NCBI GenBank assembly: GCA_026395965.1 | Contig: JAPLXS010000006.1 | Coordinates: 233,165-297,164 of the forward strand | Source of the DNA: Candidatus Nomurabacteria bacterium | GTDB taxonomy: Bacteria; Patescibacteriota; Minisyncoccia; Phycocordibacterales; UBA9973 | Length of the DNA stretch: 64,000 bases | Direction: 5' to 3' | Made by a program: the position numbers and the translations under genes | Shown: positions 15,393 to 63,695 of the stretch, piece by piece | Position numbering within the stretch: the first letter of the stretch is position 1 | How the letters are laid out: every line of letters begins with the position of its first letter | Notes under the pieces: model-generated | The model's database searches: none | The model's input: only the letters and a program-made list of their open reading frames with translations | What the model was told of the DNA's origin: nothing

Positions 15393-15393
15393 A

Positions 15394-16425
15394 TTATAGA
15401 TTTATTAATAATTCATTACTTATTGTTTGAAACAATTCATTTATATTTTCAACTTTGAAATTAATTGTTGCATACCCTCCACGCGAAGACGGTCTAACTG
15501 TGAGCTCTGTTTTTCTAGAAGGAGTATCAACATCTTCACCATTTATTTTCCAGTTGTATGAAAAATCAGATTTATTGCCTTTTAGGGACATAAAATACGG
15601 TTCAGCAACAAGAGTCATTTCATCTTCTAGCATAAAAGTTTCTTTATCTAGTGCATTGTTGTAAAGAACACCTTCTGTTGGAGATTTTTTATAAAAAACT
15701 ATTTTTGGTTTGTATGCTTGTACTTCTGTAGTATTTTCAGCACTGTAATTACCACTAACAGCAGAAGCAACAACTGTTATTTCATTTTTCTGGTCAAACA
15801 TATCACTTTTAAAAAGATACGAATTTTTGTTGTATCCAGAAACTGATTGGTCTACTTCTCCATTTTTTTTCCAAGTATAAGAAATACTTCCATTGCCAGA
15901 TTTTATACTAGATGTATTTGGGATAGCTACAACACGTATAAAACTACCAACAGTTGGTAATATTTTTCCTTTATAAAATGGTGGAGCATATCCATCAACA
16001 GACTCCCACATTGTTTCTATTTCTGATGGAACTATTACAATTTTTTTGTTTATGGTTGTGACAGAACCAACTGGTTGAATATTTATATTTATAACACTAG
16101 CTGTATCTGGGCCAAGTGCTTTAAAAGAGTAGCTAAGTTTTCCTATTCCAGCGAGAACTGTAACACCCCCAGTTTGCCATGTTATTATTGCTTTGTTTAA
16201 GTCAGTAGCATAACTAGAAATATTTATAGTTACATCTTCGTATGGCTGAGGATTACTAGGGATTGTTTCTACGCTGATTTCCCCTTCTTGTACTTGAATC
16301 TGTGGTTCAGCAAAAGAAAAATAAGGCATACTTATTATTCCTATAATAAAAATACCAAAGATAAAAAATTTTATTTTCATGAATTTCACTAGATATATTA
16401 TATAATAATCTTGTAAATCAAACAA
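15394..16425 (-). CDS. Secreted hypothetical protein (signal peptide, beta-rich)
   Basis: N-terminal MKIKFFIFGIFIIGIISMPYFSFA; no recognisable catalytic motif. Confidence 0.5.
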   Translation of the reverse strand: MFDLQDYYIIYLVKFMKIKFFIFGIFIIGIISMPYFSFAEPQIQVQEGEISVETIPSNPQPYEDVTINISSYATDLNKAIITWQTGGVTVLAGIGKLSYSFKALGPDTASVININIQPVGSVTTINKKIVIVPSEIETMWESVDGYAPPFYKGKILPTVGSFIRVVAIPNTSSIKSGNGSISYTWKKNGEVDQSVSGYNKNSYLFKSDMFDQKNEITVVASAVSGNYSAENTTEVQAYKPKIVFYKKSPTEGVLYNNALDKETFMLEDEMTLVAEPYFMSLKGNKSDFSYNWKINGEDVDTPSRKTELTVRPSSRGGYATINFKVENINELFQTISNELLINL

Positions 16426-16565
16426 GAAAATTAAAGATATTGATACATATTTTGTGTAATTAATAAAATTATTTCCTCTTTACCCCAAAGGGGCACTACG
16501 AGATAAATAATTTTATTAATTACACAAAATAATACCTATAATAAATAGACGTTGGACGTCTATTT

Positions 16566-18395
16566 TTATGAATTTGTTGAAAGTAAGTCTTTCTTGGCTT
16601 TTTGAATAGCAAGTATTTGTGATGGATCTGAAGTAATGATCTGGTCCTCTGTATAAGAAGCTATTGTTTTAATAGCAACGTGTTTTAGCCCAGCAAAGAA
16701 TATACCCTCGCCTACATTTGCTTCAAGTAAGAGGTATTTTTCTTCATCTGTGAGGTTGAAAGTCTTTTGTAATACATCTATGGTTGCTGGGGATTGTTTC
16801 AAGAGTAGTTGAATAGATGAGTTTGTAACAATAGGTATACCATAAGGACTTTTCATAAAATCTCCTACGTCCTGAGTGATAGTAGCAAGACCTAGATAGT
16901 ATTTACGTCCTCTTTTTGCAATAGAATACAAGAAAGAAGCAGTATCTTCTGATTTCATCATCCACCAAGCCTCATCAACTACGAGCAATCTCTTTTTGAT
17001 ATTTTTACGGATAGAATTCCAAATATAGTGAGTGATTATATACATTGCGACAGGCTTAAGCTCATCCTCCATGTCTCTAACAGAAAAAACAATAAATTTT
17101 CTATTTATATCTACGTTTGAAGGCTGGTTTAAGAATGAAGCCCAAGAACCATGAGTATATTTTACCAATCTCTGCATAAGAGACTCACTTCCCTCCATAC
17201 CAGAAAGAACTACTTCAAAGTCTGAGAGCATTGGAGGTTCAATATTCATGAAATCTGAATTGGTTGTTATGTCTTTCAAGGCATAAGTTTCAGTAATAGC
17301 AGAGTCAACAAGTGAATCTTCTTCTGGTGTAAGTCCACCAAGCATTATTCTAAATAGACCAACAAGATTTATGGTATTTGCACGGAGTACATCAGCACCA
17401 GTTTCATCTCCTGTAGGTATTGGTAAGTCAAAAGGGTTTATGTGGTGGTCTGAAGAAAGAGCAATGTTGAAATATCTACCTCCCACTGCTTCTGCTAGGT
17501 ATTCGTATTCGCGTTCAGGGTCTATAACAATAACTTCTGTATCAAACATCAAAGTACGAATAATCTCTAGTTTTGTGGCATAAGATTTACCTGCACCAGC
17601 TGTAGCAAAGGTAATAGAGTTGTAGTTTGGTAAAGAAAATCTATCAAAAAGTATAAGACTAGAGTTATGACGGTTTACCCCATATAGTATTCCCCTATCT
17701 TCTGTTAGGTCAAAGGATACAAATGGGAAAATACTTGAAAGAGGTTCAGTATTTAGTTTTTGGTGTATACCTAAAATATCTGTACCTAATGGTATGACAC
17801 TTTTGAAGCCCTCATTTTGTTGAAATAATGCAGGTTTAAGATAAATAAGCTTTGAATCTAGAAGAGATTTTATCTCGTTCTCAATTTTAAATAAATCATT
17901 GTCATTCTCGGCATATACAGTGATATAAAGCCCGACATCAAACATTTTCTCTTGAGCTTGCATTAGATTGTTTCTCAAATCCTCTAGGTCTCTGTATGCT
18001 GTATCTAGCATCGGGTCACGAACGAGACCTTTTGATTCACGAATAGAAATCTGACTTTGAACCTCAGCTACTTTTTTCTGGAAAGATCTCATTATTTCTG
18101 CTGTATCTATAGGATGAATAAAAATAGAAATATCATAAACCTTGTCCAGGTTTATGATTGGAGAAAACCAGTTGTCACTGAGGTATCTTGGGTATGATAT
18201 TACGAAAAATGTTCTAGCTATTTTATCTCCAAGATTTAAAGATTTTGGTGTTATTTGAAGAGCAGAAGGAGCAATAATATCTTGTAGCTCAAGAGTTGCA
18301 GCTTTGTAGATTTCACTAGGCAAAACAGGCATAACCATACTTCGGTTATTTTTAAGATCGTCCCCTTTTCCAAATAATGATGAAAATATTGACAT
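16566..18395 (-). CDS. VirB4/PrgJ-type type IV secretion ATPase, central + ATPase portion (apparent C-terminal fragment of a split gene)
   Basis: VirB4 mid-region ARTFFVISYPRYL, Walker A ATAGAGKSYATK, Walker B RLLVVDEAWWMM. Confidence 0.8.
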   Translation of the reverse strand: MSIFSSLFGKGDDLKNNRSMVMPVLPSEIYKAATLELQDIIAPSALQITPKSLNLGDKIARTFFVISYPRYLSDNWFSPIINLDKVYDISIFIHPIDTAEIMRSFQKKVAEVQSQISIRESKGLVRDPMLDTAYRDLEDLRNNLMQAQEKMFDVGLYITVYAENDNDLFKIENEIKSLLDSKLIYLKPALFQQNEGFKSVIPLGTDILGIHQKLNTEPLSSIFPFVSFDLTEDRGILYGVNRHNSSLILFDRFSLPNYNSITFATAGAGKSYATKLEIIRTLMFDTEVIVIDPEREYEYLAEAVGGRYFNIALSSDHHINPFDLPIPTGDETGADVLRANTINLVGLFRIMLGGLTPEEDSLVDSAITETYALKDITTNSDFMNIEPPMLSDFEVVLSGMEGSESLMQRLVKYTHGSWASFLNQPSNVDINRKFIVFSVRDMEDELKPVAMYIITHYIWNSIRKNIKKRLLVVDEAWWMMKSEDTASFLYSIAKRGRKYYLGLATITQDVGDFMKSPYGIPIVTNSSIQLLLKQSPATIDVLQKTFNLTDEEKYLLLEANVGEGIFFAGLKHVAIKTIASYTEDQIITSDPSQILAIQKAKKDLLSTNS

Positions 18396-18672
18396 CCCGT
18401 TAGAGATAGGAAGCGCCTAATCTGTTTTTAAGATAACGCTTACCCATTCCCGATTTTAAATATAATTCTCTCGACCGAGCTTTTTTCTCGCTCTTACATG
18501 CTTCATAATAAATAATTTCAAACGGACCTCTTCCTTTTGTATAAGTAGACAAACCATTGTTGTGTTGCAGAAGGCGTTTCCGTAAATCTTTTGTACTTCC
18601 TGTGTATATATTACCATCTTTTTTACTTTTTAATATATAAGTGTAATAAAACATATATAATCTCTAACGGGA
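18395..18672 (-). other. Inverted-repeat leader element, site 2 (TCCCGTTAGAGAT ... ATCTCTAACGGGA) with GIY-YIG gene nested between the arms
   Basis: 13-bp perfect IR; GIY-YIG ATG 5 nt inside the upstream arm, its TAA stop inside the downstream arm, which directly abuts the VirB4 ATPase ORF ATG. Confidence 0.6.
18400..18654 (-). CDS. Small GIY-YIG nuclease family protein (UPF0213/YhbQ-like)
   Basis: FYYTYILKSKKDGNIYTGSTKDLRKRLLQHNNG...YTKGRGPFEIIYYE, 84 aa. Confidence 0.8.
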   Translation of the reverse strand: MFYYTYILKSKKDGNIYTGSTKDLRKRLLQHNNGLSTYTKGRGPFEIIYYEACKSEKKARSRELYLKSGMGKRYLKNRLGASYL

Positions 18673-18683
18673 CCAGTATAATA

Positions 18684-19337
18684 TTATTGTAGTTTCATTC
18701 CTTGGCTAGTGTCGCCAGGGTTAAATGTTTTATAAAAAAGCTCGACTACTTGGTCTGTTTTAAGTTGAGAAGTTCTGATGCCTACTCTACCAAGACCACT
18801 GATAATAACACCTACTCTCTGGTCGAGCTGTGTACGCTTCTCCTCAAATGAAGCCATATCCATTGCCTTTTTTGTATCTTCTATTTGTTTTTTTGGAGCA
18901 CCGCTTCCCATAAAACTATCCATCATTTTATTGCTAGACTTTATAACATTTGCACTGTAAGGTACAACAATAAAAAAAGTTTTTGTCATTATATTTACTT
19001 CGTCAGTAAATGATTTTATGAAGTCTATGTATTCTTTGGTTTGTATTTTTAAAAGAGGCTCTGTTTGCTCTTTTAATCTTTCTTCTAGGGTCATTAGGTA
19101 TGGGCGTATGTCCAATCTGCGTGATTGCATACATATTTGAGTTGGAAAATCTAAACCGTTGAGAAAATTTTGGAACTCACTTATGATAGCTGTTTGTTCG
19201 TCTGCTGATTTAAGAGATAAGTTTAGAGAAGATGCTAGTAGTATAGAACGAAGACCACCATCCTTTAGTATGATGATGCCATTTCTTACTTCTTTAATTG
19301 GTACAAACTCCTGAGAGCTTTTTGCATCTATTGCCAT
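18684..19337 (-). CDS. VirB4/PrgJ N-terminal domain protein (apparent N-terminal fragment of split VirB4)
   Basis: Gram-positive VirB4 N-terminal pattern QEFVPI..NGIIILKDG...LNLSL...EQTAIISEFQNFLNGLD..TQI. Confidence 0.55.
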   Translation of the reverse strand: MAIDAKSSQEFVPIKEVRNGIIILKDGGLRSILLASSLNLSLKSADEQTAIISEFQNFLNGLDFPTQICMQSRRLDIRPYLMTLEERLKEQTEPLLKIQTKEYIDFIKSFTDEVNIMTKTFFIVVPYSANVIKSSNKMMDSFMGSGAPKKQIEDTKKAMDMASFEEKRTQLDQRVGVIISGLGRVGIRTSQLKTDQVVELFYKTFNPGDTSQGMKLQ

Positions 19338-19340
19338 ATA

Positions 19341-19446
19341 AAATAATTACGAATTAATAATTACGAATTTATAACTAATAACATTGTACCATATTACAAA
19401 TAATTAAGAATTATTAACCTTACTCCCTAATTCCTAATTATTAATT
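19341..19446. repeat. Heptamer arrays (19341-19370 and 19401-19419 forward; 19425-19446 reverse) in the 5' leader of the VirB4-N ORF
   Basis: aaataattacgaattaataattacgaattt ... taattaagaattattaacc ... ccctaattcctaattattaattt. Confidence 0.6.
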
Positions 19447-19455
19447 TATAATTAT

Positions 19456-19875
19456 TTACTCCTTCTCTCCTCTATTACTATCCTGCACATCTAAACTCCA
19501 CGAAAGGTCTTTTAGTTTATTTGATGTAACCATAGGAACAACAGATACTAGTTGTGGAGTAGAAGATTCTTCTTTTTCTTTAATTTCTGGTTTTACAAGT
19601 CTTTGTTTCCATATATATAATTTACCAGAAATAAAATAATTAAAGGCAGCTTCAAGGTAATAGATAAATGGCTTTTCATTTATCTTGTAAAATACCAAAA
19701 GAAATGACAATACACCTATGGGTATTATTAAAAATATACCAATCCACAAAGGAAATAATTTATAAACAACAAAGGCCATACCAGCCCCACCAACAATATA
19801 TATAAATTGGCGAAAAGTAAAAGGGCCAAATAATTTGTCCTCGACGTCAATAAATTGTGGTACTTTGAATTGCAT
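19456..19875 (-). CDS. PrgI/VirB3-like small two-TM type IV secretion protein
   Basis: 139 aa, pattern DVEDKLFGPFTFRQFIYIVGGAGMAFVVY + second TM, located upstream of VirB4 as in PrgI-PrgJ. Confidence 0.55.
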   Translation of the reverse strand: MQFKVPQFIDVEDKLFGPFTFRQFIYIVGGAGMAFVVYKLFPLWIGIFLIIPIGVLSFLLVFYKINEKPFIYYLEAAFNYFISGKLYIWKQRLVKPEIKEKEESSTPQLVSVVPMVTSNKLKDLSWSLDVQDSNRGEKE

Positions 19876-19883
19876 ATAATGGG

Positions 19884-19915
19884 TAATTACGAATTAGGAA
19901 TTAATAATTACGAAT
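19884..19915 (+). repeat. Heptamer array (forward) left of the four-helix-bundle gene
   Basis: taattacgaattaggaattaataattacgaat. Confidence 0.6.
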
Positions 19916-19921
19916 GAACGA

Positions 19922-20272
19922 TTAAGATCTGGATGTTTTTATAATCGAACCAAGTATTTTTAATAATTCTTCACATTCACACATAAGTGTACCAGATTGT
20001 TCCTTGTTTAGAAAACCACTATCTGATAAAAGCTGTAACCAATAAAGTGTTTCCCTTGCCTCTTTGTATGAAATACTCATCTTTGAGATGAAATCATTTT
20101 TTGATTGTGCCCCTATTGCCTCCTCTATATTTGCCCCAATAGATGTTCCGGATCGAATTAATTGTTTTGAAAGAATAAATTCTTTTTTGTCTTTAGTTAA
20201 ATCCTGATATATTTTTATTATATTAAGACTGAAGGCATAACTCTTACTTCTTACGATATTGTCCGACTTCAT
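19922..20272 (-). CDS. Four-helix-bundle protein (TIGR02436-like; family commonly found in 23S rRNA intervening sequences)
   Basis: QLIRSGTSIGANIEEA...KMSISYKEARETLYWLQLL signature, 116 aa. Confidence 0.75.
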   Translation of the reverse strand: MKSDNIVRSKSYAFSLNIIKIYQDLTKDKKEFILSKQLIRSGTSIGANIEEAIGAQSKNDFISKMSISYKEARETLYWLQLLSDSGFLNKEQSGTLMCECEELLKILGSIIKTSRS

Positions 20273-20285
20273 TTTTTTTGATTTA

Positions 20286-20318
20286 AATTCTTAATTCCTA
20301 ATTATTAATTCTTAATTT
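20286..20318 (-). repeat. Heptamer array (reverse orientation) right of the four-helix-bundle gene
   Basis: aattcttaattcctaattattaattcttaatttt, inverted relative to 19884-19915. Confidence 0.6.
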
Positions 20319-20319
20319 T

Positions 20320-21441
20320 CTAAAACTCTTCCCTATAAGGGTCATGTGATTTTGGTGAAGAAACAGTATTTGAAGGTAAAGGAGACGGAGTAGATATTTT
20401 GGGAATTGAATAGTCTGAAACAGTATGATCACTCATAGTTATACTTTTTAATTTGTCCCCCATAGATATGGCTTGTGTATTTACAATAGGAGACTTGGGA
20501 ATAGGAATACTAGGTTTTACTTCCCATGCATCTTTTAGCTCGTCTTTTATTTTAACAGGAGTTTCTATTTTTGTAGTTATATGTTCTATGTAATCAAGCC
20601 TATCTTCTTTTTTTATTATACTAGCACTTTGTGCTACGCTTTCTGTTGGTTTTTTAATTTCTATAACTTCTTCTATTTTGGGTATTGTTGTTTGTACTGC
20701 TGGGAGCTCTATACTTGATTTTGCATAAGGAGGAACAGGAACCTTGTCCTCGCTCTCTACTTTCATATCACTACCGTTTATTTTTTCTTGCTCATTCTTT
20801 TTCATAACCTCTCTAATGTTAATGAAAATATTTTCATTAACATCTTTTATTAGGTCTGAAATTTCTTCTTTTGGTAGTGGTATTTTAGAAATTATTTCAC
20901 CCTCGTATTTATCTGAATGTATAACATTTTGTATTACTTTTACTGTTATATCTTCTATAATACCCATCTGCTCGATGTTTAATTTGTATTTCTTTGATAT
21001 CTCGTAAAGCTTATTTTTCCAGTCAGAGCCTGCTATCGCCTCCTGAATATCTTTTGGCATAGTAATAAAACGAGGGTCTAAAATCAAAGGTTTTTTTTCA
21101 AAAACTGTTTTGGCTGTTCTTTCTAGTTTTTTCTTTAACTCCTCGGCAATTTTTTTGAAAATTAATCTATCGAGTTCACCGAGTAGGATGTTTGTATCAT
21201 CATTAGTTATTCTCATTCTGGATTGAATTTCTTTTTGATATTCTTCTGGTTTTAAAATTCCGCATAGAAGTAATTCAGTTTCTGTTGAAAGATCATCAAG
21301 TTGCTCGGGGCTGTATTTTTTATTCATCTCTAGAATAACCAATTTCCAATTTACACTATCAATAGCCTCCCGACTTTCTTTTGAAAGGAGTGCTCTTGCT
21401 TCTTCTATTTGAATTTTAAGTAAATCAACTTTGGTATCCAT
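20320..21441 (-). CDS. Hypothetical coiled-coil protein with Pro-rich C-terminus (secretion-locus component)
   Basis: 373 aa, charged helical repeats, no enzymatic motif. Confidence 0.5.
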   Translation of the reverse strand: MDTKVDLLKIQIEEARALLSKESREAIDSVNWKLVILEMNKKYSPEQLDDLSTETELLLCGILKPEEYQKEIQSRMRITNDDTNILLGELDRLIFKKIAEELKKKLERTAKTVFEKKPLILDPRFITMPKDIQEAIAGSDWKNKLYEISKKYKLNIEQMGIIEDITVKVIQNVIHSDKYEGEIISKIPLPKEEISDLIKDVNENIFINIREVMKKNEQEKINGSDMKVESEDKVPVPPYAKSSIELPAVQTTIPKIEEVIEIKKPTESVAQSASIIKKEDRLDYIEHITTKIETPVKIKDELKDAWEVKPSIPIPKSPIVNTQAISMGDKLKSITMSDHTVSDYSIPKISTPSPLPSNTVSSPKSHDPYREEF

Positions 21442-21536
21442 CTTGATATATAATAGTTCCTTGAAAGTGGAATTATCTTATTAATTATAGTTTATAATAC
21501 AAACTTACTCAATCTTTAATAATAAAATTAATTTTA

Positions 21537-21941
21537 TTATTTTATAAAATAGGAATAATCTCCACCAGAAATAATAAAATTAATTGTTTGGTCCCATGGC
21601 GTTTTTGTAAACTCTATATTATTCTTTATGTCGTTACTAATTATAGATAATATTGGATCAAAAACATTTTTATATATTTCAGCTATTATTTTTTTAGTTA
21701 TTTCTTCGCTTAAACCAACTTCATTTTGTAAAATATAATCAAAATCTTCTATATCAGTAAGACCAGAAAGAATTAAACCAATTTCAATTTGAATTCTTTC
21801 GTTTTCTTCATCTATAAGACCAAACTGATTGCTAATCTCGTCTGTTTTTTTAATCCAATCTACAGAGTTAATAGCAACCTGTTTTATCTTGGGCAGCTTT
21901 ATTATTTCATCTAATATTTTTTGTTTTGTTATTTCATTCAT
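21537..21941 (-). CDS. Hypothetical small acidic protein (secretion-locus component)
   Basis: 134 aa ORF in operon context. Confidence 0.45.
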   Translation of the reverse strand: MNEITKQKILDEIIKLPKIKQVAINSVDWIKKTDEISNQFGLIDEENERIQIEIGLILSGLTDIEDFDYILQNEVGLSEEITKKIIAEIYKNVFDPILSIISNDIKNNIEFTKTPWDQTINFIISGGDYSYFIK

Positions 21942-21946
21942 ATGTT

Positions 21947-24628
21947 TTAATGGTGTCCTCCTCCATGACTGTCATGACCAGAGCTTGCAGGTTTTGGGAC
22001 GGCAGCTGGCTTAGGTGCAGGTGCTACTGGAGCAGAATGTCCTCCCCCACCTCCATGACTTTCAGAACTCTTTGTTTGTATACCAAGTATCATATTGTCT
22101 CTTGCTTCAGAAGTACCTCTTACTGACCTGCCCGACATAGAGAAAATATTTGCGATTTTATTTGTTGTACTTCCAATATAATCTGATTGGTTTTTTGCAA
22201 CTTTATTTTTTACATCTTCTATCTTGTGCGTAATATTTTTAATATCTGAACCAAAAGAAGCTATTGATTTACCTGTACCGTTTCTTTCTAGTGCCAAGGC
22301 AGCATTAGCTTCATTTGTAGCTTTCAGAAGATCAGTTTTTGCTTTTTGTAGATCTTGCTCAGATTTATCTTTTGATTCTCTAAATTTAAGATCCGCTACA
22401 TATTTAGCTTCTTTTATTTTAGTTTCTTTTTCTGGGGTCATTCCTCCTGGGGAAGATTCTGCATCAGATTTCATTTTAGCAATTCTCTCCATATCTAGAT
22501 TGTATTCAGCTGTTGGAGCACCTTCAATCTTATTAACCTTAGCTTCTGCCTCAGTTTTTGCTTTTACTAGAGATTCAATATATGTCTTCCCTATCTTTCC
22601 GTTATCTGTAGCATATTCATCTGATCCATCTGGATTCTTTTTCCCGGTTTTACCACCCAGGCTGATTGAAGTTTTTTCTGCTTTTAATTCTTTTATTTCA
22701 TTAGAAAGTCTCATTTTTTCTGCTGGATCTGCAGTTTCAGCCATATCTTGTTTGGCTTTAGTTAACTTGTCTTCAATTTCATGTAGTTTATGTGAATTAT
22801 TATTTTCAACAAGTTTTTTACCAACTTCAGTCTTTCTTTTTTCAACTTCATCACCTCTTGTCGCCATAGTTTTTAGTTCTGCTAGTCTTGTTGTTCTTTT
22901 GGCTGCTTTGTCTTCTATTGCTTTCTTGTATCCACCTTCTTTTGCTTTTCCAAAATCTACTCCAAGATTTTTGCCTGTAGCAGCCCCTGCTTTTGTATTA
23001 CGAACATCAAAGCTTGCTTTATTTGCACCACTACCAATATCTATAAGTTTTGCCGCCATTCTACCTTTTAGTCCACCATCTGCTACTTTTTTAGCTAAGT
23101 ATGAATTGTTTTCAATATTACCTCCAAGTCTTCCAACGCTTGCCCTCATAGCAAGTGCGGCTCCACCAGTCATAGCACCAAGAGCGATTCCTCCTACAGC
23201 ACCACCAGCTTTAGATAGAGACTCTCCTATTTGACCAGACATACTTACTGCTACATCTTTTGCTTTCATAAGAAGGATCATTATAAATGCAAACGGAACT
23301 ATTATTTTTAAGACAAAAGTTAAACCACTTGCATTTAATCCACCTGGTGTATTCATTGCATCCATAACACCAAGTCCTTTACTTAGAAACCCGACAATCA
23401 AATACATAAAAAAAGCAAACACCGGAGCTACAAAAGCCATTGAAAGTAGGTCTGGCCACCACTTTTTCCAACCAATCATTTTTATATCTTGAAGCTGTGG
23501 AACTATATAACTAAAAAATGCGAGAGGAGCTAGTATCATAGAGAGCCAAAGCATTACCACCCTGCCTATGAAAATAAGAGCAGATGATGCAAATGCTATG
23601 GTTCCTACTATGTTGATCGCAGTAGAGAGAAAAACAACAATAATAAAACCACCGATAGATATACCGCCACTATTATCTGTCTCACTTGTATCAAGCCCTT
23701 TTGATTTAATTTTTCCTACTTCAGCGGAACTTGTTATAATAGCAACCGGATTAACTTTTGAAACTATTGCTTCAGATAATTTAATTTCTCCAAGATCACC
23801 CCGTTCACTAACAACAGGAAGAGGGTTACCACTCTCATCTTTTTGAACTGTGCCTGTGATTATTGTTTTATCATTATAAAAAACTCGCGCTAAAATATTT
23901 GAAGTATCTATAATAACTTGGGTTGTAAACAAGCTGAAGTTTATAAGTAGTCCAATGATAACTACATTGATAATCATTTCTTTTGTTTTAACACTATGTA
24001 ATTCCAAGATTGTTCCAAAAGCGATATATAGTAAAACAAATATGAAAAACATATTACAAAAGTCTCTTACTATTCCCCACCCACTAAGTACAAATTCTGA
24101 ACGATAAGAAACATCGCTAAGAGAATACATAAAAGTAAAGTCTAATGCTCTACCAGAAAGTCCAAAAACAAATGATGTAGGTACAAAAAATATATAGTAT
24201 AAAAGTTGAGCACCGCAACCTTTCAACCCGTCTCCAGAAGTAATCCCACAAGGCGGAAGTCCACCAGAGTTTTCTTGTTGTGTTGGTGTTACCCCTGTTC
24301 CAGATAATGCACCTACAGTAGTAGTTTGAGCATTAGCAACTGCTTCTTTACACTGACTATAAGAAATACCTGTCTGTGAACTACTTGCTGCTTCATCAGC
24401 TGTCCTATCTGCATTACACTCATTTAGTATTTTTGGAGTACTTGTAGATAATACTTCAGATACACCTGCAGCAGAAAATGATATTTTATTATAACTGTAC
24501 AAAATAGCAGCTTCTACTTTGATACTTTGTATTTTTGGAGTATTTTTTATTCCAAGACCCAAAGTAAATGGCGCAAATAATTGCACAAAAACTGAAAGTA
24601 TTAGAATGTATGGTAAGAATTTCTTCAC
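21947..24628 (-). CDS. VirB6/TrbL-like (TcpH/PrgH-type) polytopic membrane protein with long C-terminal coiled-coil and Gly/His/Pro-rich tail
   Basis: Signal peptide, at least 6 TM helices in residues 150-460, glycine-zipper AGGAVGGIALGAMTGGAALA, K/E-rich coiled coil, tail GGGGGHSAPVAPAPKPAAVPKPASSGHDSHGGGHH. Confidence 0.55.
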   Translation of the reverse strand: MKKFLPYILILSVFVQLFAPFTLGLGIKNTPKIQSIKVEAAILYSYNKISFSAAGVSEVLSTSTPKILNECNADRTADEAASSSQTGISYSQCKEAVANAQTTTVGALSGTGVTPTQQENSGGLPPCGITSGDGLKGCGAQLLYYIFFVPTSFVFGLSGRALDFTFMYSLSDVSYRSEFVLSGWGIVRDFCNMFFIFVLLYIAFGTILELHSVKTKEMIINVVIIGLLINFSLFTTQVIIDTSNILARVFYNDKTIITGTVQKDESGNPLPVVSERGDLGEIKLSEAIVSKVNPVAIITSSAEVGKIKSKGLDTSETDNSGGISIGGFIIVVFLSTAINIVGTIAFASSALIFIGRVVMLWLSMILAPLAFFSYIVPQLQDIKMIGWKKWWPDLLSMAFVAPVFAFFMYLIVGFLSKGLGVMDAMNTPGGLNASGLTFVLKIIVPFAFIMILLMKAKDVAVSMSGQIGESLSKAGGAVGGIALGAMTGGAALAMRASVGRLGGNIENNSYLAKKVADGGLKGRMAAKLIDIGSGANKASFDVRNTKAGAATGKNLGVDFGKAKEGGYKKAIEDKAAKRTTRLAELKTMATRGDEVEKRKTEVGKKLVENNNSHKLHEIEDKLTKAKQDMAETADPAEKMRLSNEIKELKAEKTSISLGGKTGKKNPDGSDEYATDNGKIGKTYIESLVKAKTEAEAKVNKIEGAPTAEYNLDMERIAKMKSDAESSPGGMTPEKETKIKEAKYVADLKFRESKDKSEQDLQKAKTDLLKATNEANAALALERNGTGKSIASFGSDIKNITHKIEDVKNKVAKNQSDYIGSTTNKIANIFSMSGRSVRGTSEARDNMILGIQTKSSESHGGGGGHSAPVAPAPKPAAVPKPASSGHDSHGGGHH

Positions 24629-24692
24629 ACTGATTATTATAACAATTTTTCAGAATAAAATCTCGATATTGAACTTTTATTTGATAAAATAA

Positions 24693-26819
24693 CTACCAAA
24701 TATTTAATACTTGTTCGTAGTCTGCTGCTGTTCCATCTGGGTAATCACTACAGTTTGTTCCTCCTGTGTTGGAGGAAGTAGCTGAAAGGTAATTATAATG
24801 AGTGTATGTCGAATTGATAGTATAGTCACTCATAAAATATATATCTCTTGGTTCAGGTTCAAGTGATTTATTTATCAACGGAACAATGGGAACATCTAAG
24901 GTTAGAGGGTCATTGTGGCATTTAAATATATATTTTTGTGTTGGGTTTTGTACGTAGTAAGGACCTCTTTCAGTAGGTTTGTACCAAGGGTTACCAAATC
25001 TTGCAGTTGGTCCTGTGTAGTTTGGATTTACTGTGCCAGCTTTGTTTGTGGTTTGTGCATAACACTGGTTTATAAGGTCATCTATGTTTTCAACATAAGG
25101 TTTTAGAGTATCTATCTCCCTATATATCATATCTATATCTGTTTGTGTTTTTAATGTTGGGGCTATTATATAGTACTTTCTTAGAAGTTGTGCTAGTTTT
25201 GCTTTTTCTAAATCAGTAAATGTCAAAGGGTTCTGCTCTATAAGCAAACACTTGTTTTCTGTAGGGTCGTTTGGAGCTGAGTTTATTTCAGAGTCATGTG
25301 TTGCTACGTATGAGTTATTTATATCACCACCTGCATGACAATTCGGGTCTAGTGTATCTATTTTGCCGTCGATGTCGTTGTCTAAGCCATCGTTACACTG
25401 ATAAACAACTGATGGGTAAGTTACTTCAGAATCATGTGTATCTATGTAAGAGTTATTTATATCACCACCCGTATGACAACTTGGGTCAAGTGCATCTGTG
25501 AGACCATCGGCATCATTGTCTAATCCGTCGGAACATTGTTTCTTTTCACCATCAGATGGTAATGAATTTGATACAGTAAATGTAGTCCAAGGACCACAAT
25601 TGTTGTCTTCACTTGATTCTATTATAAGACCTGCATCACTGCTAGATTTTTTGTCGGCACAAGCTCTTATATAGTAAGTTCCCGATTGAGGAAAAGTATA
25701 TAAAACTTTTGCAGTATTGTTTGTACCTGCTGATAGTACTGGTAGATTTACATTTAATTCAACATTCCCATTTGTACTTATATTGTTGCTTGTTGGGGCT
25801 GTTTTTGAAATTGTAAAAAAGGTAGAGAAACCAGTTACAGTGGAACCCTTGCCATCATTTCTAATGATAGATGTAAGAGTTACGGGTGTGTTTATAAGAG
25901 CAGTAGCTGGAGTAGTAAAACCAGATATTAAATCTGGACTCATACTCACAGGTGAGCTTGATTCTGAAAAATGATCTGGAGTGTATGCTTTAGTCAAGTC
26001 TCCTCCTGTATGACAATTTGGGTCGAGTGTATCTACAAGACCATCGGTATCGTTGTCTAGCCCGTCGGAACATTGTTTTATATTTCCTCCAACATTAACA
26101 AATACACTACCACTTACATATCCTAAGTCCCCCATACATGTGACTATATAAGACTTATTTGACGAAAGCGTACCAGTTTTAAATGATCCACTTGTACCTG
26201 TTCCGTTGCCGAAACCCGACTGACATGAAGTAGTATTTGTTGAAGTCCAACTCACAGTAGAAGACGCTCCCGATGCAATAGCTTGAGGACTAGCAGAAAC
26301 GGCAACTGTTGGCAAAAGATTGCTACCATCAGTTACACTCACAACTACGTTGTCTACCCCATCACCAAACTCTCCTGTACAGATTATTGTATAAGACTTG
26401 CTGTCAGACAAAGCTCCTGTTTCAAATGTTCCTGTTGCAGGAAGTACTTTGTCATCGCCGGCATTACAAGAAGTAGTATTGATTGAAGTCCAACTAATAG
26501 TCGATGATTTACCAGGTGCAACTTCTGAAGGGCTAGCTGTAGCCATAACTGTGGGTATGCCTGTACCGTCTACAAAGTTTGTACAAAGTGGAGGGTTGAC
26601 TGCTTTGTTGGTACACTCTGGTGTTTTATCTGCTACCAAGGGTACGTTTTTTTTGAATAAACTATTTATAAGCGGTGAAAATAGTTTTCCAACACTTGTA
26701 GATGTTTTTACACCAAAAGAATCTCTGTTGTTATAGATTAAATACCCGGATACCAAAAGTAATATAACAATTATTATTGTTATTATTAGAGCTTTACTTT
26801 TTTGGGGTGTATTTTCCAT
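24693..26819 (-). CDS. Secreted/anchored protein with tandem Ig-like domains and three Cys-flanked DGLDND-DG Ca-binding-like modules
   Basis: N-terminal TM; repeated about 55 aa units (SSTISWTSINTTSC / SSTVSWTSTNTTSC); motif C-x-DGLDND-x-DGL-x-D-x-LDP-x-CH three times. Confidence 0.55.
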   Translation of the reverse strand: MENTPQKSKALIITIIIVILLLVSGYLIYNNRDSFGVKTSTSVGKLFSPLINSLFKKNVPLVADKTPECTNKAVNPPLCTNFVDGTGIPTVMATASPSEVAPGKSSTISWTSINTTSCNAGDDKVLPATGTFETGALSDSKSYTIICTGEFGDGVDNVVVSVTDGSNLLPTVAVSASPQAIASGASSTVSWTSTNTTSCQSGFGNGTGTSGSFKTGTLSSNKSYIVTCMGDLGYVSGSVFVNVGGNIKQCSDGLDNDTDGLVDTLDPNCHTGGDLTKAYTPDHFSESSSPVSMSPDLISGFTTPATALINTPVTLTSIIRNDGKGSTVTGFSTFFTISKTAPTSNNISTNGNVELNVNLPVLSAGTNNTAKVLYTFPQSGTYYIRACADKKSSSDAGLIIESSEDNNCGPWTTFTVSNSLPSDGEKKQCSDGLDNDADGLTDALDPSCHTGGDINNSYIDTHDSEVTYPSVVYQCNDGLDNDIDGKIDTLDPNCHAGGDINNSYVATHDSEINSAPNDPTENKCLLIEQNPLTFTDLEKAKLAQLLRKYYIIAPTLKTQTDIDMIYREIDTLKPYVENIDDLINQCYAQTTNKAGTVNPNYTGPTARFGNPWYKPTERGPYYVQNPTQKYIFKCHNDPLTLDVPIVPLINKSLEPEPRDIYFMSDYTINSTYTHYNYLSATSSNTGGTNCSDYPDGTAADYEQVLNIW

Positions 26820-26842
26820 ATATTTACTTAAATAATTATTAT

Positions 26843-29815
26843 TTATTTACAATCAGGGTCTTGTGAGTCTACTAGTCCATCCATATCGTTGTCTAACCCG
26901 TCTGTACATCTTAATCCGTCTTCATGTGAACCGATAATATCTGAAGGGTCATAATAAAGTATATCTTCTTCGGCAAAACATTCTTCGTATTTTGTTTTGT
27001 ATTGAGCAAAGGTTAAGATATTACCTGCACTAGTTGCATTTTTTATACAATTTTTGTAGTCAATTAAACACTGAGCATTATTTGTATCATTTTCACATTC
27101 TTTTCTTGTCGCAACACAAGCATTTATTGCAAGTTGATTTAGGTTATTTAATTGTGACAACAATTGAGCATCACGACGATCTTGAGCAGCTTTTATGATT
27201 ATACTTACTTCTTTCTTGATACCATTTAGTTTCGAAGTGTTGAGACTAGCTGTACTTGCATCATTTGCATAGTTTGTTTTTTTTGTGTTTACATCTTCAT
27301 TTTTTCTAACAATGTTTTTTGTCATATTGTATCCTTCTTCTACCATTGGAACATATGCAGTGTTTTTTATTAGAGTTGATATTTTCTCACTTTCGTTAAA
27401 CTCATGTTGCATTGTTTCATAGGTATCTTTAAAAGCTTTAGCATATTTTTCATAAGCCATTGTTATGAGTTTGGGCACTCTTGTTTTTACAGAATTTGTA
27501 ACTACATTCATTGCATTGATTTCACGGCTGCCATCATTATCACCATAAGCTATTGCATAATGATTAGCAACTTCTGTCATTGGTAGTGATGTAAGTATTG
27601 ATTTCCATAGTGCACTATTTTTATTTTCTGCACGAATAGCTATATTTTCAGTTGGACTTTTGTCTGGATTAATCGGGAATATACTATTGAAATAATTTTC
27701 CCAAGATTCTTTTCCTTCTTTGTCCGCAGTCCAGTATGAAAATGTTAAACCGCCACTATTATCAAATAGATGTCCTTCTATTGATTGAGCATATTTTATA
27801 AAATAACTAGCTGTTTGACCTGTATTTGCTTTAAATGATGGGTTTGGTCCAGGGATACAATATTCAAGCTCACCAAGTTTTGGCATTACACTTGGTAGTA
27901 TTTGCAGTATTTCTTTTGTTGCGACTATGTAGTCTTTTTGTATTTGTATTACACCTCTTTTATCTATTGGACTTGTCTGGTTTTTACAAACACCTTTTAT
28001 TGTCCCTCCACACTTCCAGTTTTGCCATTCTTTGCCATTCCAAAAAGCCCTGTCACCTTTTTCCCATCCTGTGTAACCGTTATTGAATAACTTGGTATTT
28101 CCATCTGTTGTTACGTTGTAGTAATAATTTGAAGGATAATATCTTTGATTTGCTTCGTCATAGGGAGCTAAATTTATATATAAGTTTGGCTCATTTGTAT
28201 AAGCATTCCAGTTGCCTAGTGATATGGTAGGTGTATGTATATATGTGTTTCCAAGGTCACGAGTTAGATCAAATTGACTATTTGTGTATCCACTATAACC
28301 TGAGTTGTTTGCCCCAGTGTTGTCACCCAAGTAATCATTTGAGGTGTTTGACCCGTATCCACCAACACCAATATTTTCGTTGTTGTATGTATATGTATTA
28401 TCTGAAAGACTAGCTAGTCCGTTTGATTTAAATTTATCTAAAAGATTTGAAAACAGACTACTAAGCGAGTCATTTATAGTCTTTGCTACTTCTAATTGAC
28501 GATCTGGAGAGTTTATATAACTTGAAAGTTTGTCTTTTATGATACTTCCAGGTGTAACTACATTCCACTTTGTACAAACGTCGTAGTTTGGATTAGCGCT
28601 ACTTTTATTGGGACTAAATACATACTGCTCATTTAATGAACTTGCATAATTATTTGCAAAAGAAGGTGCTTCTGCTGGACCAATATCAGATTTAATTTTT
28701 GGCTTACCTGGACCATCATATATCTGCCATTCAGCACATGTTTTTTGACTCAAAAATCCGTTGTTTTGAGCGACTTCATCTTTTGTTTCAGATGTTTGTT
28801 GAGCTATTCTATCTGCTAGTTTTTGGCTAGCCAGCATATTGAATCCAAGAGGATTGTTTGACTCTTTTTGAGTTAGTGCCATATATCCATCCCACCCGCC
28901 TGATGAAAAATCATTTGCAAAATTGTTGTTTGCTCTTTGTGATCTTTGAAGTGCTGTTTCTGGTGTACCTGTGTCTACATAGGAATTTTTGTCTGTTATA
29001 AATGCTGCTAAATCAGAAGTTAGTGAATCGAGGAAGTTGGCCGCACCGTACTTTAGAGCACCTGCATTGTAACCGGTTACGATAGATCTAGAAAAATCCT
29101 TACCATATGGAAATGCCCCATTTGAAAACCTTTGAACCCCTTGGTCATATACATTTTTTTCTATACCATTTGTAAACTTTGTAACACTTTGGACATACAT
29201 GGGGTTTCCATTTAAACCATGGTTGACCCAGTTTACAGTCTGGTGGGTCATAGAAGCGAGTTGGTTTTGTGCTAGTCTTGTTGCTAGTCCGTTGAAACAA
29301 TCTTCTCTTTTTTTATTTGCTTCATCTATTGAGATTGAGTTATCTATTTTTGTTTCAAGTGATTTGTTTATAGTTTTGCCTACTCGTGTACAGTCTATAG
29401 AGTCAACAAGTGGAGCAGCAGCATCACTTACGTAAGGTATCCATCCAGCAACGTTGGTAAGAACATCTTTTCCTGCCTGACAAACAGTGGATTGTGCACC
29501 TGCAACAGTTTCCGACCCCATAAAATCATCCAAAAGTTTGTTTGCTTGGTTTTTTATAAAATCTGTCATTTGTGTTGAAACTTTATCAACAATACCAGTA
29601 CAACCAACAACACCCATCAGGGTGTCTGTATTTAGTATATTTTCAGAATTTACTTGATATGGATTATCTCCACTATTTGGATTGTCCCAATTTAGACCGC
29701 CGTCACCAGTTGCACTAGCTACATAAGGAAAAGAAAATTGAGAAAAAGAAATAACTATAGAAATTATAAAAAAAATTGATATTGTCTTGAATGTAAATAT
29801 ATTTTTTCTATCCAT
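26843..29815 (-). CDS. Giant secreted protein (990 aa) ending in the same Cys-flanked DGLDND-DG module
   Basis: Signal peptide; Asn/Tyr/Gly-rich; C-terminal LRCTDGLDNDMDGLVDSQDPDCK. Confidence 0.55.
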   Translation of the reverse strand: MDRKNIFTFKTISIFFIISIVISFSQFSFPYVASATGDGGLNWDNPNSGDNPYQVNSENILNTDTLMGVVGCTGIVDKVSTQMTDFIKNQANKLLDDFMGSETVAGAQSTVCQAGKDVLTNVAGWIPYVSDAAAPLVDSIDCTRVGKTINKSLETKIDNSISIDEANKKREDCFNGLATRLAQNQLASMTHQTVNWVNHGLNGNPMYVQSVTKFTNGIEKNVYDQGVQRFSNGAFPYGKDFSRSIVTGYNAGALKYGAANFLDSLTSDLAAFITDKNSYVDTGTPETALQRSQRANNNFANDFSSGGWDGYMALTQKESNNPLGFNMLASQKLADRIAQQTSETKDEVAQNNGFLSQKTCAEWQIYDGPGKPKIKSDIGPAEAPSFANNYASSLNEQYVFSPNKSSANPNYDVCTKWNVVTPGSIIKDKLSSYINSPDRQLEVAKTINDSLSSLFSNLLDKFKSNGLASLSDNTYTYNNENIGVGGYGSNTSNDYLGDNTGANNSGYSGYTNSQFDLTRDLGNTYIHTPTISLGNWNAYTNEPNLYINLAPYDEANQRYYPSNYYYNVTTDGNTKLFNNGYTGWEKGDRAFWNGKEWQNWKCGGTIKGVCKNQTSPIDKRGVIQIQKDYIVATKEILQILPSVMPKLGELEYCIPGPNPSFKANTGQTASYFIKYAQSIEGHLFDNSGGLTFSYWTADKEGKESWENYFNSIFPINPDKSPTENIAIRAENKNSALWKSILTSLPMTEVANHYAIAYGDNDGSREINAMNVVTNSVKTRVPKLITMAYEKYAKAFKDTYETMQHEFNESEKISTLIKNTAYVPMVEEGYNMTKNIVRKNEDVNTKKTNYANDASTASLNTSKLNGIKKEVSIIIKAAQDRRDAQLLSQLNNLNQLAINACVATRKECENDTNNAQCLIDYKNCIKNATSAGNILTFAQYKTKYEECFAEEDILYYDPSDIIGSHEDGLRCTDGLDNDMDGLVDSQDPDCK

Positions 29816-29836
29816 GATTTTTATTGTATCATATTT

Positions 29837-30745
29837 TTAATTACTTTTACTAGCAATATCGTTTAAATCAGTACCTATTGCATCGGTGTATTTTTTATAA
29901 TTAAGAAGAGACCTCATACCTACTATAGGGTCAGTTATTATTTGAGTTAATCCTTCTATGGATTGTGCTATTTTTTCGTAATCATTTGAAAGATTTAAAT
30001 GCGCGAGAGCATAAGAGCTGGGAACAGGTACTTTTACAAGCTCTTCACTAAAAGCTCTATATGCGAGAGCTACTGTTTTGGCAGAATACAATGCTTGAGG
30101 GTCATTGTTTGCTACTCCTTGAGATAAAAGCAATAGCTCACTTCCTAGGTCATCGTTTTTGTATTTTTTTAAAATAGCTGTTAGCGAAACTATGTAGTCC
30201 ATGTGTGTTTTACTTGAATCCGCTTTAATATTGAGCATATTTTGTGTGTATGCGCTTTCTAGGGGTATTGGTACTATTTGTTGCCCTATGGATTCAGAGA
30301 CTGATTTTATGGATTCTTCGTCTAGCTGACCTGTTTGTTGTAGAGACATAATAGTAGCAAAAAACTGTTTTGAGAGAATCTCATTTTCAGTTATTGAAAT
30401 TGTGTCATCTGAGCTAGTTATGATACCTTTTTGTTCCAAGGATTTTTTCTTTGCTAGTATAAAATCTTTATTTTCAGGGCCATTTTTATATGGGTCAAGT
30501 CCCCATAAGTACTCTTCCCAGTCCGCGATGCCGTTTTTGTTGCCATCTTTTTCGTTTATACTACCAATAGTCATTTTGATAGGCTCACCTTTGTATTTTC
30601 CACCGGTTTTATTTTTGAATAAAGATATCGCACCTTTTACTCCAAAATAAATAGCGATAAGAGCAAGTATTATAAGAATATTGAATATAAATTTTTTACT
30701 TGGAAGATATTTTTTATATTTGTTCATAGATATTGAGTCTTGCAA
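29837..30745 (-). CDS. Membrane-anchored hypothetical protein
   Basis: 302 aa, single N-terminal TM. Confidence 0.45.
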   Translation of the reverse strand: MQDSISMNKYKKYLPSKKFIFNILIILALIAIYFGVKGAISLFKNKTGGKYKGEPIKMTIGSINEKDGNKNGIADWEEYLWGLDPYKNGPENKDFILAKKKSLEQKGIITSSDDTISITENEILSKQFFATIMSLQQTGQLDEESIKSVSESIGQQIVPIPLESAYTQNMLNIKADSSKTHMDYIVSLTAILKKYKNDDLGSELLLLSQGVANNDPQALYSAKTVALAYRAFSEELVKVPVPSSYALAHLNLSNDYEKIAQSIEGLTQIITDPIVGMRSLLNYKKYTDAIGTDLNDIASKSN

Positions 30746-62768: not shown

Positions 62769-63695
62769 ATGAAAAAAATGTTTTTAATAATGTTGGTTGC
62801 GATAGCAACTGCATTAGTAGTGTCATGTACCAAAGACGATCTAACACAAGCTCCACAAGAAGAATTAGAGCCACATGTTGAATTGAAAGTAACACCAGAC
62901 AACGCAACCATTCCTTATGGTTCTACTGTGACTGTATCTTGGACTTCCATAAATGCTAAAACCGTAACCTTAAATGGCGAACCGGTGGCTACAAATGGAA
63001 CCAGAACTTTCAACAACTTGGTTTCAACTACTACATTTACTGCACTTGCAAAAAATGTCGTTAAAACTGCACACGATGAAAAAACAGTAAATATAGGTGA
63101 AGAACCTACTCCTACTGCTACTCTTACAATTTCGTCGCAAGATGCTATTGTACCTTATGGTCACGATGTGACTCTGAGTTGGAATACTACCAATGCAAAT
63201 ACTGTCACTCTCAATGGAGTGCCCGTACCTGCTATTGGTTCACAAACTGTAGTTAAACTACTTGCAAATACAACTTATGTGTTAAGAGCTGTAAATATTA
63301 CAAAAGATGCTACTAGCCAAAAGACTGTTATTGTTGGAGATTGGACTACTTCTAGATTTGGTTTATTGACACATGCTGGTCAAAATTGGTGGTTTGATAA
63401 AATGGAATCTTGGGGTAATGGTATTGTTGCTATTACTTATTATGCAACTCCAAATAATGGGTATGATGTTTATTTGCCCAATTATACAATTTCAAATTAT
63501 AGCCATAATGGTCAGTTCTTGGCTAATTCAACTCAATGGGAACTTATTGAAAATGATACTAAGATAAGAACAACTTTTAGTACGGGGTCTCATGTTGAGG
63601 TTATAGTCAGCTTAACTCAAACAGATTTTATTTTTAGAGAAGAAGATAAAAATGGTCAAGGAACTTATTATATGAGATATTTGAAAGTTCATTAA
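62769..63695 (+). CDS. Lipoprotein with two Ig-like repeats
   Basis: Lipobox LVVSC; repeats TVTVSWTSINAKTVTLNGEPV / VTLSWNTTNANTVTLNGVPV resemble the units in ORF 24693-26819. Confidence 0.5.
   Translation: MKKMFLIMLVAIATALVVSCTKDDLTQAPQEELEPHVELKVTPDNATIPYGSTVTVSWTSINAKTVTLNGEPVATNGTRTFNNLVSTTTFTALAKNVVKTAHDEKTVNIGEEPTPTATLTISSQDAIVPYGHDVTLSWNTTNANTVTLNGVPVPAIGSQTVVKLLANTTYVLRAVNITKDATSQKTVIVGDWTTSRFGLLTHAGQNWWFDKMESWGNGIVAITYYATPNNGYDVYLPNYTISNYSHNGQFLANSTQWELIENDTKIRTTFSTGSHVEVIVSLTQTDFIFREEDKNGQGTYYMRYLKVH

Follow-up and report, generated by a model that had tools for sequence, protein, structure and literature searches.

What is the cysteine-flanked acidic motif that two large, adjacent proteins of a Candidatus Nomurabacteria genome have in common, and what could it do for them? 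The proteins, of 708 and 990 amino acids (aa), are encoded on the minus strand of a 64,000-nucleotide (nt) window (assembly GCA_026395965.1, contig JAPLXS010000006.1, positions 233,165 to 297,164; ~32% GC), beside genes of a type IV secretion system (T4SS). An initial annotation, made from the sequence alone, had read the motif as a calcium loop with a disulfide clamp and had proposed it as a shared modular tag for mutual docking or surface anchoring. We find that the motif is already known, as it belongs to a curated repeat family with a solved calcium-binding homologue, the C-rich domain of teneurins. What is new in the window is a set of single-disulfide members, including a lineage-specific subtype with a histidine-containing tail (His-tail), in two T4SS-linked proteins of a candidate phylum. 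The module is probably a calcium- and disulfide-rigidified spacer of extracellular stalks, a mini-domain of the kind that binds Ca2+ in teneurins.

A six-frame scan of the window with the regular expression C.DG.DND.DG..D..DP.C gave exactly four matches, three in the 708-aa open reading frame (ORF) and one in the 990-aa ORF. This is the distribution described in the initial annotation, with a copy at the very C terminus of the 990-aa protein, except that the second copy of the 708-aa protein starts at residue 429 and not near residue 425. Looser patterns, such as D.D.DG..D, gave no extra sites in the window. Copies 2 and 3 of the 708-aa protein are 46 aa apart and are separated from copy 1 by a CARDB domain, and the 990-aa protein is single-copy. 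The copies and their tails are as follows (NF033662 is the NCBIfam model discussed below; AF2 stands for AlphaFold2).

26013-26072, minus strand: module copy 1 of the 708-aa protein, aa 250-269, core CSDGLDNDTDGLVDTLDPNC, then His-tail HTGGDLTKAYTPDHFSE
25476-25535, minus strand: module copy 2 of the 708-aa protein, aa 429-448, core CSDGLDNDADGLTDALDPSC, then His-tail HTGGDINNSYIDTHDSE; found by the regular expression and NF033662
25338-25397, minus strand: module copy 3 of the 708-aa protein, aa 475-494, core CNDGLDNDIDGKIDTLDPNC, then His-tail HAGGDINNSYVATHDSE; found by the regular expression, NF033662, and AF2
25959-26012, 25422-25475, and 25284-25337, minus strand: His-tails behind modules 1, 2, and 3 of the 708-aa protein
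26849-26908, minus strand: module copy of the 990-aa protein, aa 970-989, CTDGLDNDMDGLVDSQDPDC, ending one residue before the stop

The relatives of known structure are the teneurins. A 44-aa profile built from 100 module sequences (A3) retrieved human teneurin-4 (7PLP) from the PDB sequences with an E value of 7.1e-6, and the 13 best chains were all teneurins, from Drosophila to human, with EF-hand proteins behind all of them at non-significant values (E = 0.4-7). The segment with the tandem modules had teneurins as its sole matches at E <= 10 among all PDB sequences (7PLP, E = 0.06), and two whole-family profiles built without the regular expression (A1 and A4) likewise found 7PLP where the module lies (E = 0.0035 and 0.0057-0.0094). 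The AF2 model of a single module (copy 2, the first sequence of the alignment) has a mean predicted local distance difference test score (pLDDT) of 92.2, so the disorder that the initial annotation had named as a possible refutation is not seen. The model shows a knot of irregular shape in which helix is limited to short turns, with no helix-loop-helix. When this model was compared by Foldseek with 350,542 PDB chains, the top four were teneurin-4, with 52% identity and a root mean square deviation of 2.8 A over 21-23 columns.

The C-rich domain of teneurin-4, solved at 1.5 Å, binds three octahedral Ca2+ through the side chains of E835, D840, D843, N844, D845, D847, D851, D854, and D856 and three backbone carbonyls, and is held by the disulfides C838-C857, C852-C863, and C858-C869; its calcium sites I and II resemble those of thrombospondin type 3 repeats and the third resembles that of LDL-receptor class A (LA) modules (PMC9058538). 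Counting from the first cysteine of the module as position 0, the side-chain ligands align with positions -3, +2, +5, +6, +7, +9, +13, +16, and +18, and C838-C857 aligns with Cys0-Cys+19. All four copies of the window keep +2, +5, +6, +7, +9, +13, and +16 and both cysteines, that is, seven of the nine side-chain ligands, and the 990-aa copy, with an additional Asp at +18, has eight of the nine. The 708-aa copies have Asn or Ser at +18 and no acidic residue at -3, so that the equivalents of E835 and D856 are missing. As the ligands and the C838-C857 bridge of the solved homologue align with conserved positions of the module, both predicted properties, calcium binding and the Cys0-Cys+19 clamp, are well supported by homology, which upholds these two parts of the initial annotation. 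Its comparison with EF-hand, dockerin, and thrombospondin type 3 loops was right as far as the type 3-like coordination is concerned (PMC9058538), but no such family was reported by Pfam. When the motif segments were scanned against Pfam-A at E <= 10, PF11617 was the sole match; thrombospondin, dockerin, and EF-hand families were absent there and from the scan of the whole proteins at E <= 1, and no thrombospondin chain appeared among the PDB sequence matches at E <= 10. Membership in those three families was rejected, given the lack of Pfam matches at these permissive thresholds.

The module is also represented among curated families, as NF033662 (acid_disulf_rpt, acidic double-disulfide repeat). 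The 708-aa protein matches this model in three stretches with 64.2 bits (E = 6.5e-18), above the curated whole-protein cutoff of 41 bits, while the single copy of the 990-aa protein stays below it (32.2 bits, E = 6.3e-8). Copy 1 as an isolated 38-aa segment scored 37.3 bits (E = 1.7e-9), and the matches of the window copies span model positions 4-28 of 32. A literature search on the family name found no paper.

How widespread the module is was estimated by an exhaustive HMMER search with A3 of 1.84 billion cluster representatives (50%-identity clusters), which found 18,276 carriers at E <= 1e-3, 5,791 at E <= 1e-10, and 1,053 at E <= 1e-30, the first figure being a lower bound, since single copies are barely significant. 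Carriers reach 6,093 aa and up to 49 matched stretches per protein. NF033662 scores 163-705 bits on five of the multi-copy ones (P0245, P0268, P0276, P0279, and P0283). The domain contexts of the carriers include DUF11 (P0261), P-domain with MAM, PA14, and SprB (the giant protein P0315), and PPC (the giant protein P0326), and a look-up of the clusters of the ten top matches gave no informative names. Found in 18,276 clusters or more and in proteins of unrelated architecture, the motif is widespread, which the initial annotation itself had named as grounds for refutation. As a side observation, one contig of a 75% GC genome (GCA_030427205.1, JAUHXC010000019.1, 3001-12495) codes for two adjacent giant proteins of 2164 and 2271 aa that are almost wholly repeat, with 43-44 A3 stretches each (35 by NF033662 for P0245), adjoining a Ser/Thr kinase/PEGA gene.

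Among the best 150 matches of the global search, a second pair of cysteines covaries: 290/342 modules with a cysteine at +14 have another near +25, versus 8/929 of those without it (Fisher p = 1.5e-218). These are the positions of the C852-C863 disulfide of teneurin, and the pair is found in about 27% of the global instances. Modules with this pair are presumably, judging by sequence, the double-disulfide form of the NF033662 repeat. The covarying pair separates a single-disulfide from a double-disulfide class of the bacterial repeat, and the families of the 990-aa and 708-aa proteins are almost purely single-disulfide, as Cys+14 is absent from 307 of their 308 modules.

Within this class, each of the two proteins has a subtype of its own. 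The 990-type consensus is E-R-C-[SNT]-D-G-[IL]-D-N-D-L-[DN]-G-L-[IV]-D-x-x-D-P-[DA]-C, marked by R at -1, M/L at +8, D at +18, and the lack of a His-tail. The 708-type consensus reads [QE]-C-[SN]-D-x-x-D-N-D-x-D-G-[LK]-I-D-x-x-D-P-x-C-H-x-[DG]-G-D-L-x3-Y-x-P-x-H-x-S-E and thus includes the tail, which follows 127/197 modules of the 708 set, 1/111 of the 990 family, and 8/1271 of the global top 150. Nearly all of the tail-bearing proteins of the 708 set (57/59) also carry the C-terminal region typical of the 708 family. The tail, predicted with a pLDDT above 90, has two conserved histidines; it may stand in for the teneurin half that is conotoxin-like and disulfide-rich, or provide a further metal site. 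The DNA cores of the four window copies are identical at 42-50 of 60 nt in every pair, with no outlier pair. The possibility that one module had recently been copied from one gene into the other was rejected in view of this even identity and of the subtype signature that each copy shares with its own family. Because the consensus sequences differ and no recent DNA exchange is seen, the two proteins do not have a common tag, each carrying a long-standing subtype of its own.

To see where the modules sit, we turn to the 708-aa protein. From the N terminus, it consists of a transmembrane anchor, a disordered linker, two immunoglobulin (Ig)-like domains, module 1, a CARDB domain, modules 2 and 3, and a C-terminal region conserved in the family. 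The boundaries come from a full-length AF2 model (47-sequence alignment, mean pLDDT 71) unless otherwise noted.

24693-26819, minus strand: ORF of the 708-aa surface protein (NTU81_01975), with a 100% match to a hypothetical protein of a Ca. Nomurabacteria metagenome-assembled genome (MAG)
26730-26795, minus strand: N-terminal transmembrane helix, aa 9-30, a helix in AF2
26334-26552, minus strand: Ig-like beta-sandwich 1, aa 90-162, AF2 strands with pLDDT 83-94
26091-26309, minus strand: Ig-like beta-sandwich 2, aa 171-243, AF2, weakly similar to the lipoprotein at 62769-63695
25596-25937, minus strand: CARDB domain between modules 1 and 2, aa 295-408, Pfam PF07705, 35.9 bits, E = 8.8e-9
24930-25262, minus strand: C-terminal region, aa ~520-630, common to the positional orthologues

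The Kyte-Doolittle profile peaks at 3.03 over aa 10-28, the single N-terminal hydrophobic segment, and this N terminus is kept across the family. The disordered linker covers aa 37-84, and the CARDB beta-sandwich covers aa 297-417 in the model. Module 1 spans aa ~248-285 (copy 1 with pLDDT 82-92) and modules 2 and 3 span aa ~425-510 (pLDDT 82-91), so that the three modules score 82-92, with beta-sandwich domains around them. The C-terminal region begins with helices of low confidence (aa 523-589) and ends in an unconfident tail. It is nevertheless the part that persists: the best BLASTP matches of the 708-aa query in distant loci fall on residues ~520-630, and it is present in 86/120 homologues. 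Positional orthologues range from 256 to 1348 aa and from 0 to 14 modules; they retain the N-terminal transmembrane segment and the C-terminal region, and the middle varies in Ig, CARDB, and module units. Foldseek of the whole model retrieved multi-Ig stalks, among them LILRB receptors, alpha-2-macroglobulins, integrin legs, mastigonemes, and the GhpA grappling hook.

The tandem Ig-like units announced by the initial annotation are present, but as beta-sandwiches of ~75-80 aa instead of ~55 aa, and the lipoprotein-like protein at 62769-63695, to which they had been likened, resembles them only weakly, with 25% identity over 93 aa (pairwise E = 2e-4). That protein, of 308 aa on the plus strand, has an N-terminal LVVSC lipobox-like motif and about three repeats of the type G-x-T-V-[ST]-W-[TN]-[ST]-x-N, distantly like the Ig-like units of the 708-aa protein, and matches no Pfam family.

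The second carrier is the 990-aa protein.

26843-29815, minus strand: 990-aa secreted or anchored protein (NTU81_01980) of a conserved Paceibacteria family, identical to a hypothetical protein of a Ca. Nomurabacteria MAG

Its single hydrophobic segment is at aa 6-24. The Pfam-A scan of the whole protein (E <= 1) found no domain in it, and CARDB is the sole Pfam family seen in the 990 and 708 families. Outside the module, a profile of the entire 990 family matched nothing among the PDB sequences, so that the 880-aa core had no match there. This core is well conserved, with many invariant Cys, Gly, and Trp columns in the 27-sequence alignment (A1), in which C970, D975, D977, G980, D983, D986, and C989 of the module are at least 90% conserved. 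The module is present in 104/120 homologues, near residue 900-1000, often followed by a variable C-terminal extension, while the window protein stops one residue after it. Within the last 45 residues of many orthologues, this extension ends in a short cysteine-containing piece, roughly C-x2-R-x4-C-x6-Y-x5-Y-x-C-x-[WF]. The 990-aa protein has 16 cysteines and the 708-aa protein has 18, against 0-1 in the neighboring small proteins of the locus; together with the single N-terminal hydrophobic segment, this fits extracytoplasmic, disulfide-bonded proteins.

Both genes belong to a larger conserved block. One genome per GTDB species was scanned, which yielded 76 loci with relatives of the 990-aa protein (1.25 Mb; 2,165 ORFs), all from Paceibacteria, Nomurabacteria, or similarly labelled MAGs. 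The neighbors in the window are listed here.

29837-30745, minus strand: 302-aa single-transmembrane protein (p302), directly upstream of the 990-aa gene, syntenic in 70/76 loci
21947-24628, minus strand: polytopic 893-aa membrane protein downstream of the 708-aa gene, with an N-terminal and 6 further hydrophobic segments
19456-19875, minus strand: PrgI (VirB3-like) protein, Pfam PF12666, 39.7 bits
18684-19337, minus strand: TrsD-like protein of 217 aa, encoded directly upstream of the VirB4-like gene; 28 bits (E = 1.4e-6), under the cutoff
16566-18395, minus strand: VirB4-like T4SS ATPase, NF045971 (CD1110 family), 363.5 bits versus a cutoff of 325; Pfam TraG P-loop and AAA_10
14148-15392, minus strand: 414-aa T4SS pilin-like/VanY protein, T4SS_pilin PF18895, 34.3 bits

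The conserved order is KsgA, p302, 990-like, 708-like, VirB6-like, p134/p373, PrgI, TrsD-like, VirB4, p343, and pilin/VanY (window 14148-30745). The 893-aa protein matches no family in Pfam or NCBIfam and is a candidate VirB6/PrgH-like component by position and topology; its relatives adjoin the 708-like gene in 53/76 related loci. The 217-aa protein has sub-threshold matches (E = 1e-6 to 1e-9) to the TrsD/TraD family and to VirB4-type ATPases, in the latter to their N-terminal part, TrsD-like components being the most abundant T4SS part reported in Patescibacteria. Judging by these genes, the locus is a monoderm-type (MPF-FATA-like) T4SS of Patescibacteria, and its gene order agrees with the one described for that phylum (PMC12102498). 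The VirB4-like, PrgI, TrsD-like, and pilin-like genes thus confirm that both carriers lie in a secretion locus. The 414-aa ORF that ends the block is an unusual fusion of a pilin-like segment (aa 157-216) and a VanY-type D-Ala-D-Ala carboxypeptidase (aa 288-398), with relatives detected in just 10/76 related loci, many of the 76 breaking off before they reach it; a peptidoglycan-binding protein is also found downstream on the same strand.

The modules follow this block closely. In a hidden Markov model scan, 86 of the 2,165 ORFs carried a module, each of them either the 990 orthologue or a gene lying between that orthologue and the VirB6-like gene, so within the 76 loci there is a link to the secretion locus at the level of the lineage. 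Across the 53 loci that are complete from the 990 to the VirB6-like gene, both genes have a module in 27, only the 990 orthologue in 5, only the 708-like gene in 10, and neither in 11. Presence in the two genes is associated (Fisher p = 0.006, phylogeny-uncorrected), and the loci without modules are the most divergent.

The motif, its family, its homology to the solved domain, its predicted order, the synteny, and the variable copy number are results. From these data, we infer how the module may work; calcium stoichiometry, disulfide formation, and the role as spacer or rigidifier all belong to this inferred part. The acidic loop of ~20 residues, closed by a Cys0-Cys+19 disulfide, would be a small extracellular calcium-binding mini-domain, in which the Asp and Asn side chains at +2, +5, +6, +7, +9, +13, and +16 (and +18 in the 990-aa copy) would chelate two to three Ca2+. 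Held by calcium and the disulfide, an otherwise irregular acidic loop would become a compact and rigid bead that resists proteases. In the membrane-anchored 708-aa protein, such beads would link the Ig-like and CARDB beta-sandwiches of a stalk of variable length, which would present the C-terminal region that the family conserves; the bead of the 990-aa protein would cap the conserved core of that protein. The spacer role is suggested by the homology, the position between domains, the plasticity in copy number, and the presence of this repeat in numerous giant surface proteins that are otherwise unrelated.

Several other explanations have to be weighed against a spacer. That the motif is a chance product of low-complexity acidic sequence without a fold has a practically negligible probability: apart from the acidic composition nothing speaks for it, and four copies are observed where 2.5e-14 matches are expected from the window's own six-frame amino acid frequencies. 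Together with the match to a curated family, the conservation in orthologues, and the order predicted by AF2 (pLDDT 92), this already refutes a chance origin. A site for copper or another transition metal is suggested by the name of the one Pfam family that was returned, Cu-binding_MopE (PF11617), by the alignment of the teneurin core with the MopE motif by Tucker et al. (PMC3278476), and by the two conserved histidines of the 708-type tail. We regard it as very improbable, as the PF11617 match has 10.2 bits against a gathering score of 27 (E = 0.98), the module core lacks His, Met, or free Cys ligands, and in the solved homologue, carboxylates hold Ca2+ in an octahedral arrangement (PMC9058538).

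The remaining alternatives accept a calcium-binding module and differ in what they make it do. If it were a docking tag, the 990-aa and 708-aa proteins would be assembled on the T4SS by a calcium-dependent, dockerin-like binding of their modules to one another or to a shared partner. The confinement of all 86 module-bearing ORFs of the 76 loci to these two gene positions points in this direction, and so does the association between the two genes, uncorrected for phylogeny as it is; the teneurin-4 study describes the C-rich domain as helping to stabilise a compact dimer (PMC9058538). These points, above all the first, weigh against a mere spacer. A generic module found in at least 18,276 clusters and unrelated architectures is, however, a poor candidate for a private tag, and of the 53 complete loci, 15 show it in just one of the two partners and 11 in neither, although both genes are conserved. 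Copy numbers run from 0 to 14, the subtypes evolved separately, as seen in the very uneven frequency of the His-tail, and neither a dockerin match in the Pfam scans nor a cohesin-like partner was seen. A docking role is therefore quite unlikely, and the shared tag of the initial annotation is not supported. Somewhat different is the idea that the calcium-loaded acidic module is itself adhesive and binds a ligand or host, as LA modules bind lysines, with more copies giving more avidity. It would agree with the LA-like third calcium site of teneurin (PMC9058538), with copy numbers and stalk make-up that vary between species as expected of host-adaptive surface proteins, and with a 2025 survey of Patescibacteria T4SSs that detected no PrgB-like adhesin, a role that would then be vacant (PMC12102498). 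On the other hand, what the 708 family conserves between species is its C-terminal region and not the modules, 23 of the 86 members with that region have no module, and the 708-aa copies lack just those residues that would build the LA-like site. An adhesive module seems rather doubtful to us. The calcium- and disulfide-rigidified spacer thus stays as the probable reading.

For the two large hypothetical surface proteins of this candidate-phyla bacterium, this means one concrete and testable feature, calcium-stabilised, disulfide-stapled stalk beads, and the removal of a tempting over-reading, in which the motif would be a docking code of their own. More interesting than the motif is a by-product, the conserved 990/708 gene pair beside the T4SS. 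Being Cys-rich, stalk-like, and located beside a VirB6-like gene, the two proteins are plausible candidate adhesins of the Patescibacteria T4SS. That the two families are its host-contact components (adhesin or stalk), with modules confined to just these two genes of the locus because they make the stalk calcium-dependent through rigidity or assembly, is a tentative suggestion to which we give a modest probability. If true, epibiont attachment or secretion would be tied to environmental calcium, and, as a side implication, the teneurin C-rich domain would derive from an abundant bacterial repeat. The abundance of the repeat in bacteria does bear on the source of that domain. In the alignment of Tucker et al., the teneurin core stands beside a diatom glucosidase, a Volvox gametolysin, and the MopE motif, and a diatom or algal source was proposed in 2012 (PMC3278476). 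Given the 18,276 or more protein clusters with the module, an origin of that domain in bacteria seems no less plausible than a diatom or algal one.

Compared with known systems, the window modules have in common with the NF033662 repeat the acidic core C-x-D-G-x-D-N-D-x-D-G-x-x-D-x-x-D-P-x-C. They differ in having cysteines only at 0 and +19, where the family name implies two disulfides and hence four cysteines. The repeat has a period of 31-36 aa in the global proteins, and copies 2 and 3 of the 708-aa protein lie 46 aa apart. The MopE-type motif of PF11617 has the DG-x-DND-x-DG core in common with them, but it contains a central cysteine (DNDCDG), and the window modules are below its gathering score. 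With type I dockerins and EF-hands, they share the logic of an acidic Dx[DN]xDG calcium loop, but there is no helix-loop-helix in the AF2 model and no cohesin-like partner in sight. Thrombospondin type 3 repeats (e.g., TSP-1, PDB 1UX6) are related through the DxDxDGxxDxxD-type coordination of teneurin sites I and II (PMC9058538). Their cysteine spacing and repeat length are unlike those of the window modules. They are likewise a string of disulfide-stapled calcium loops. The teneurin C-rich domain shows significant homology over the calcium-binding core, in which D840, D843, N844, D845, D847, D851, and D854 align with invariant module positions. It has six cysteines, three disulfides, and a conotoxin-like C-terminal half, versus two cysteines per window module, and the 708 family has its His-containing tail (CH-x2-GD-x4-Y-x-P-x-H-x-SE) in place of that half. 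Against the six-cysteine teneurin consensus, ExxCx(D/N)xxDx(D/E)xDxxxDCxxx(D/E)CCxxxxCxxxxxC (PMC3278476), the window modules have Cys 1 and 3 and the acidic positions and are without Cys 2, 4, 5, and 6. Finally, teneurins possess one C-rich domain per protein, while the bacterial module comes in tandem or dispersed copies.

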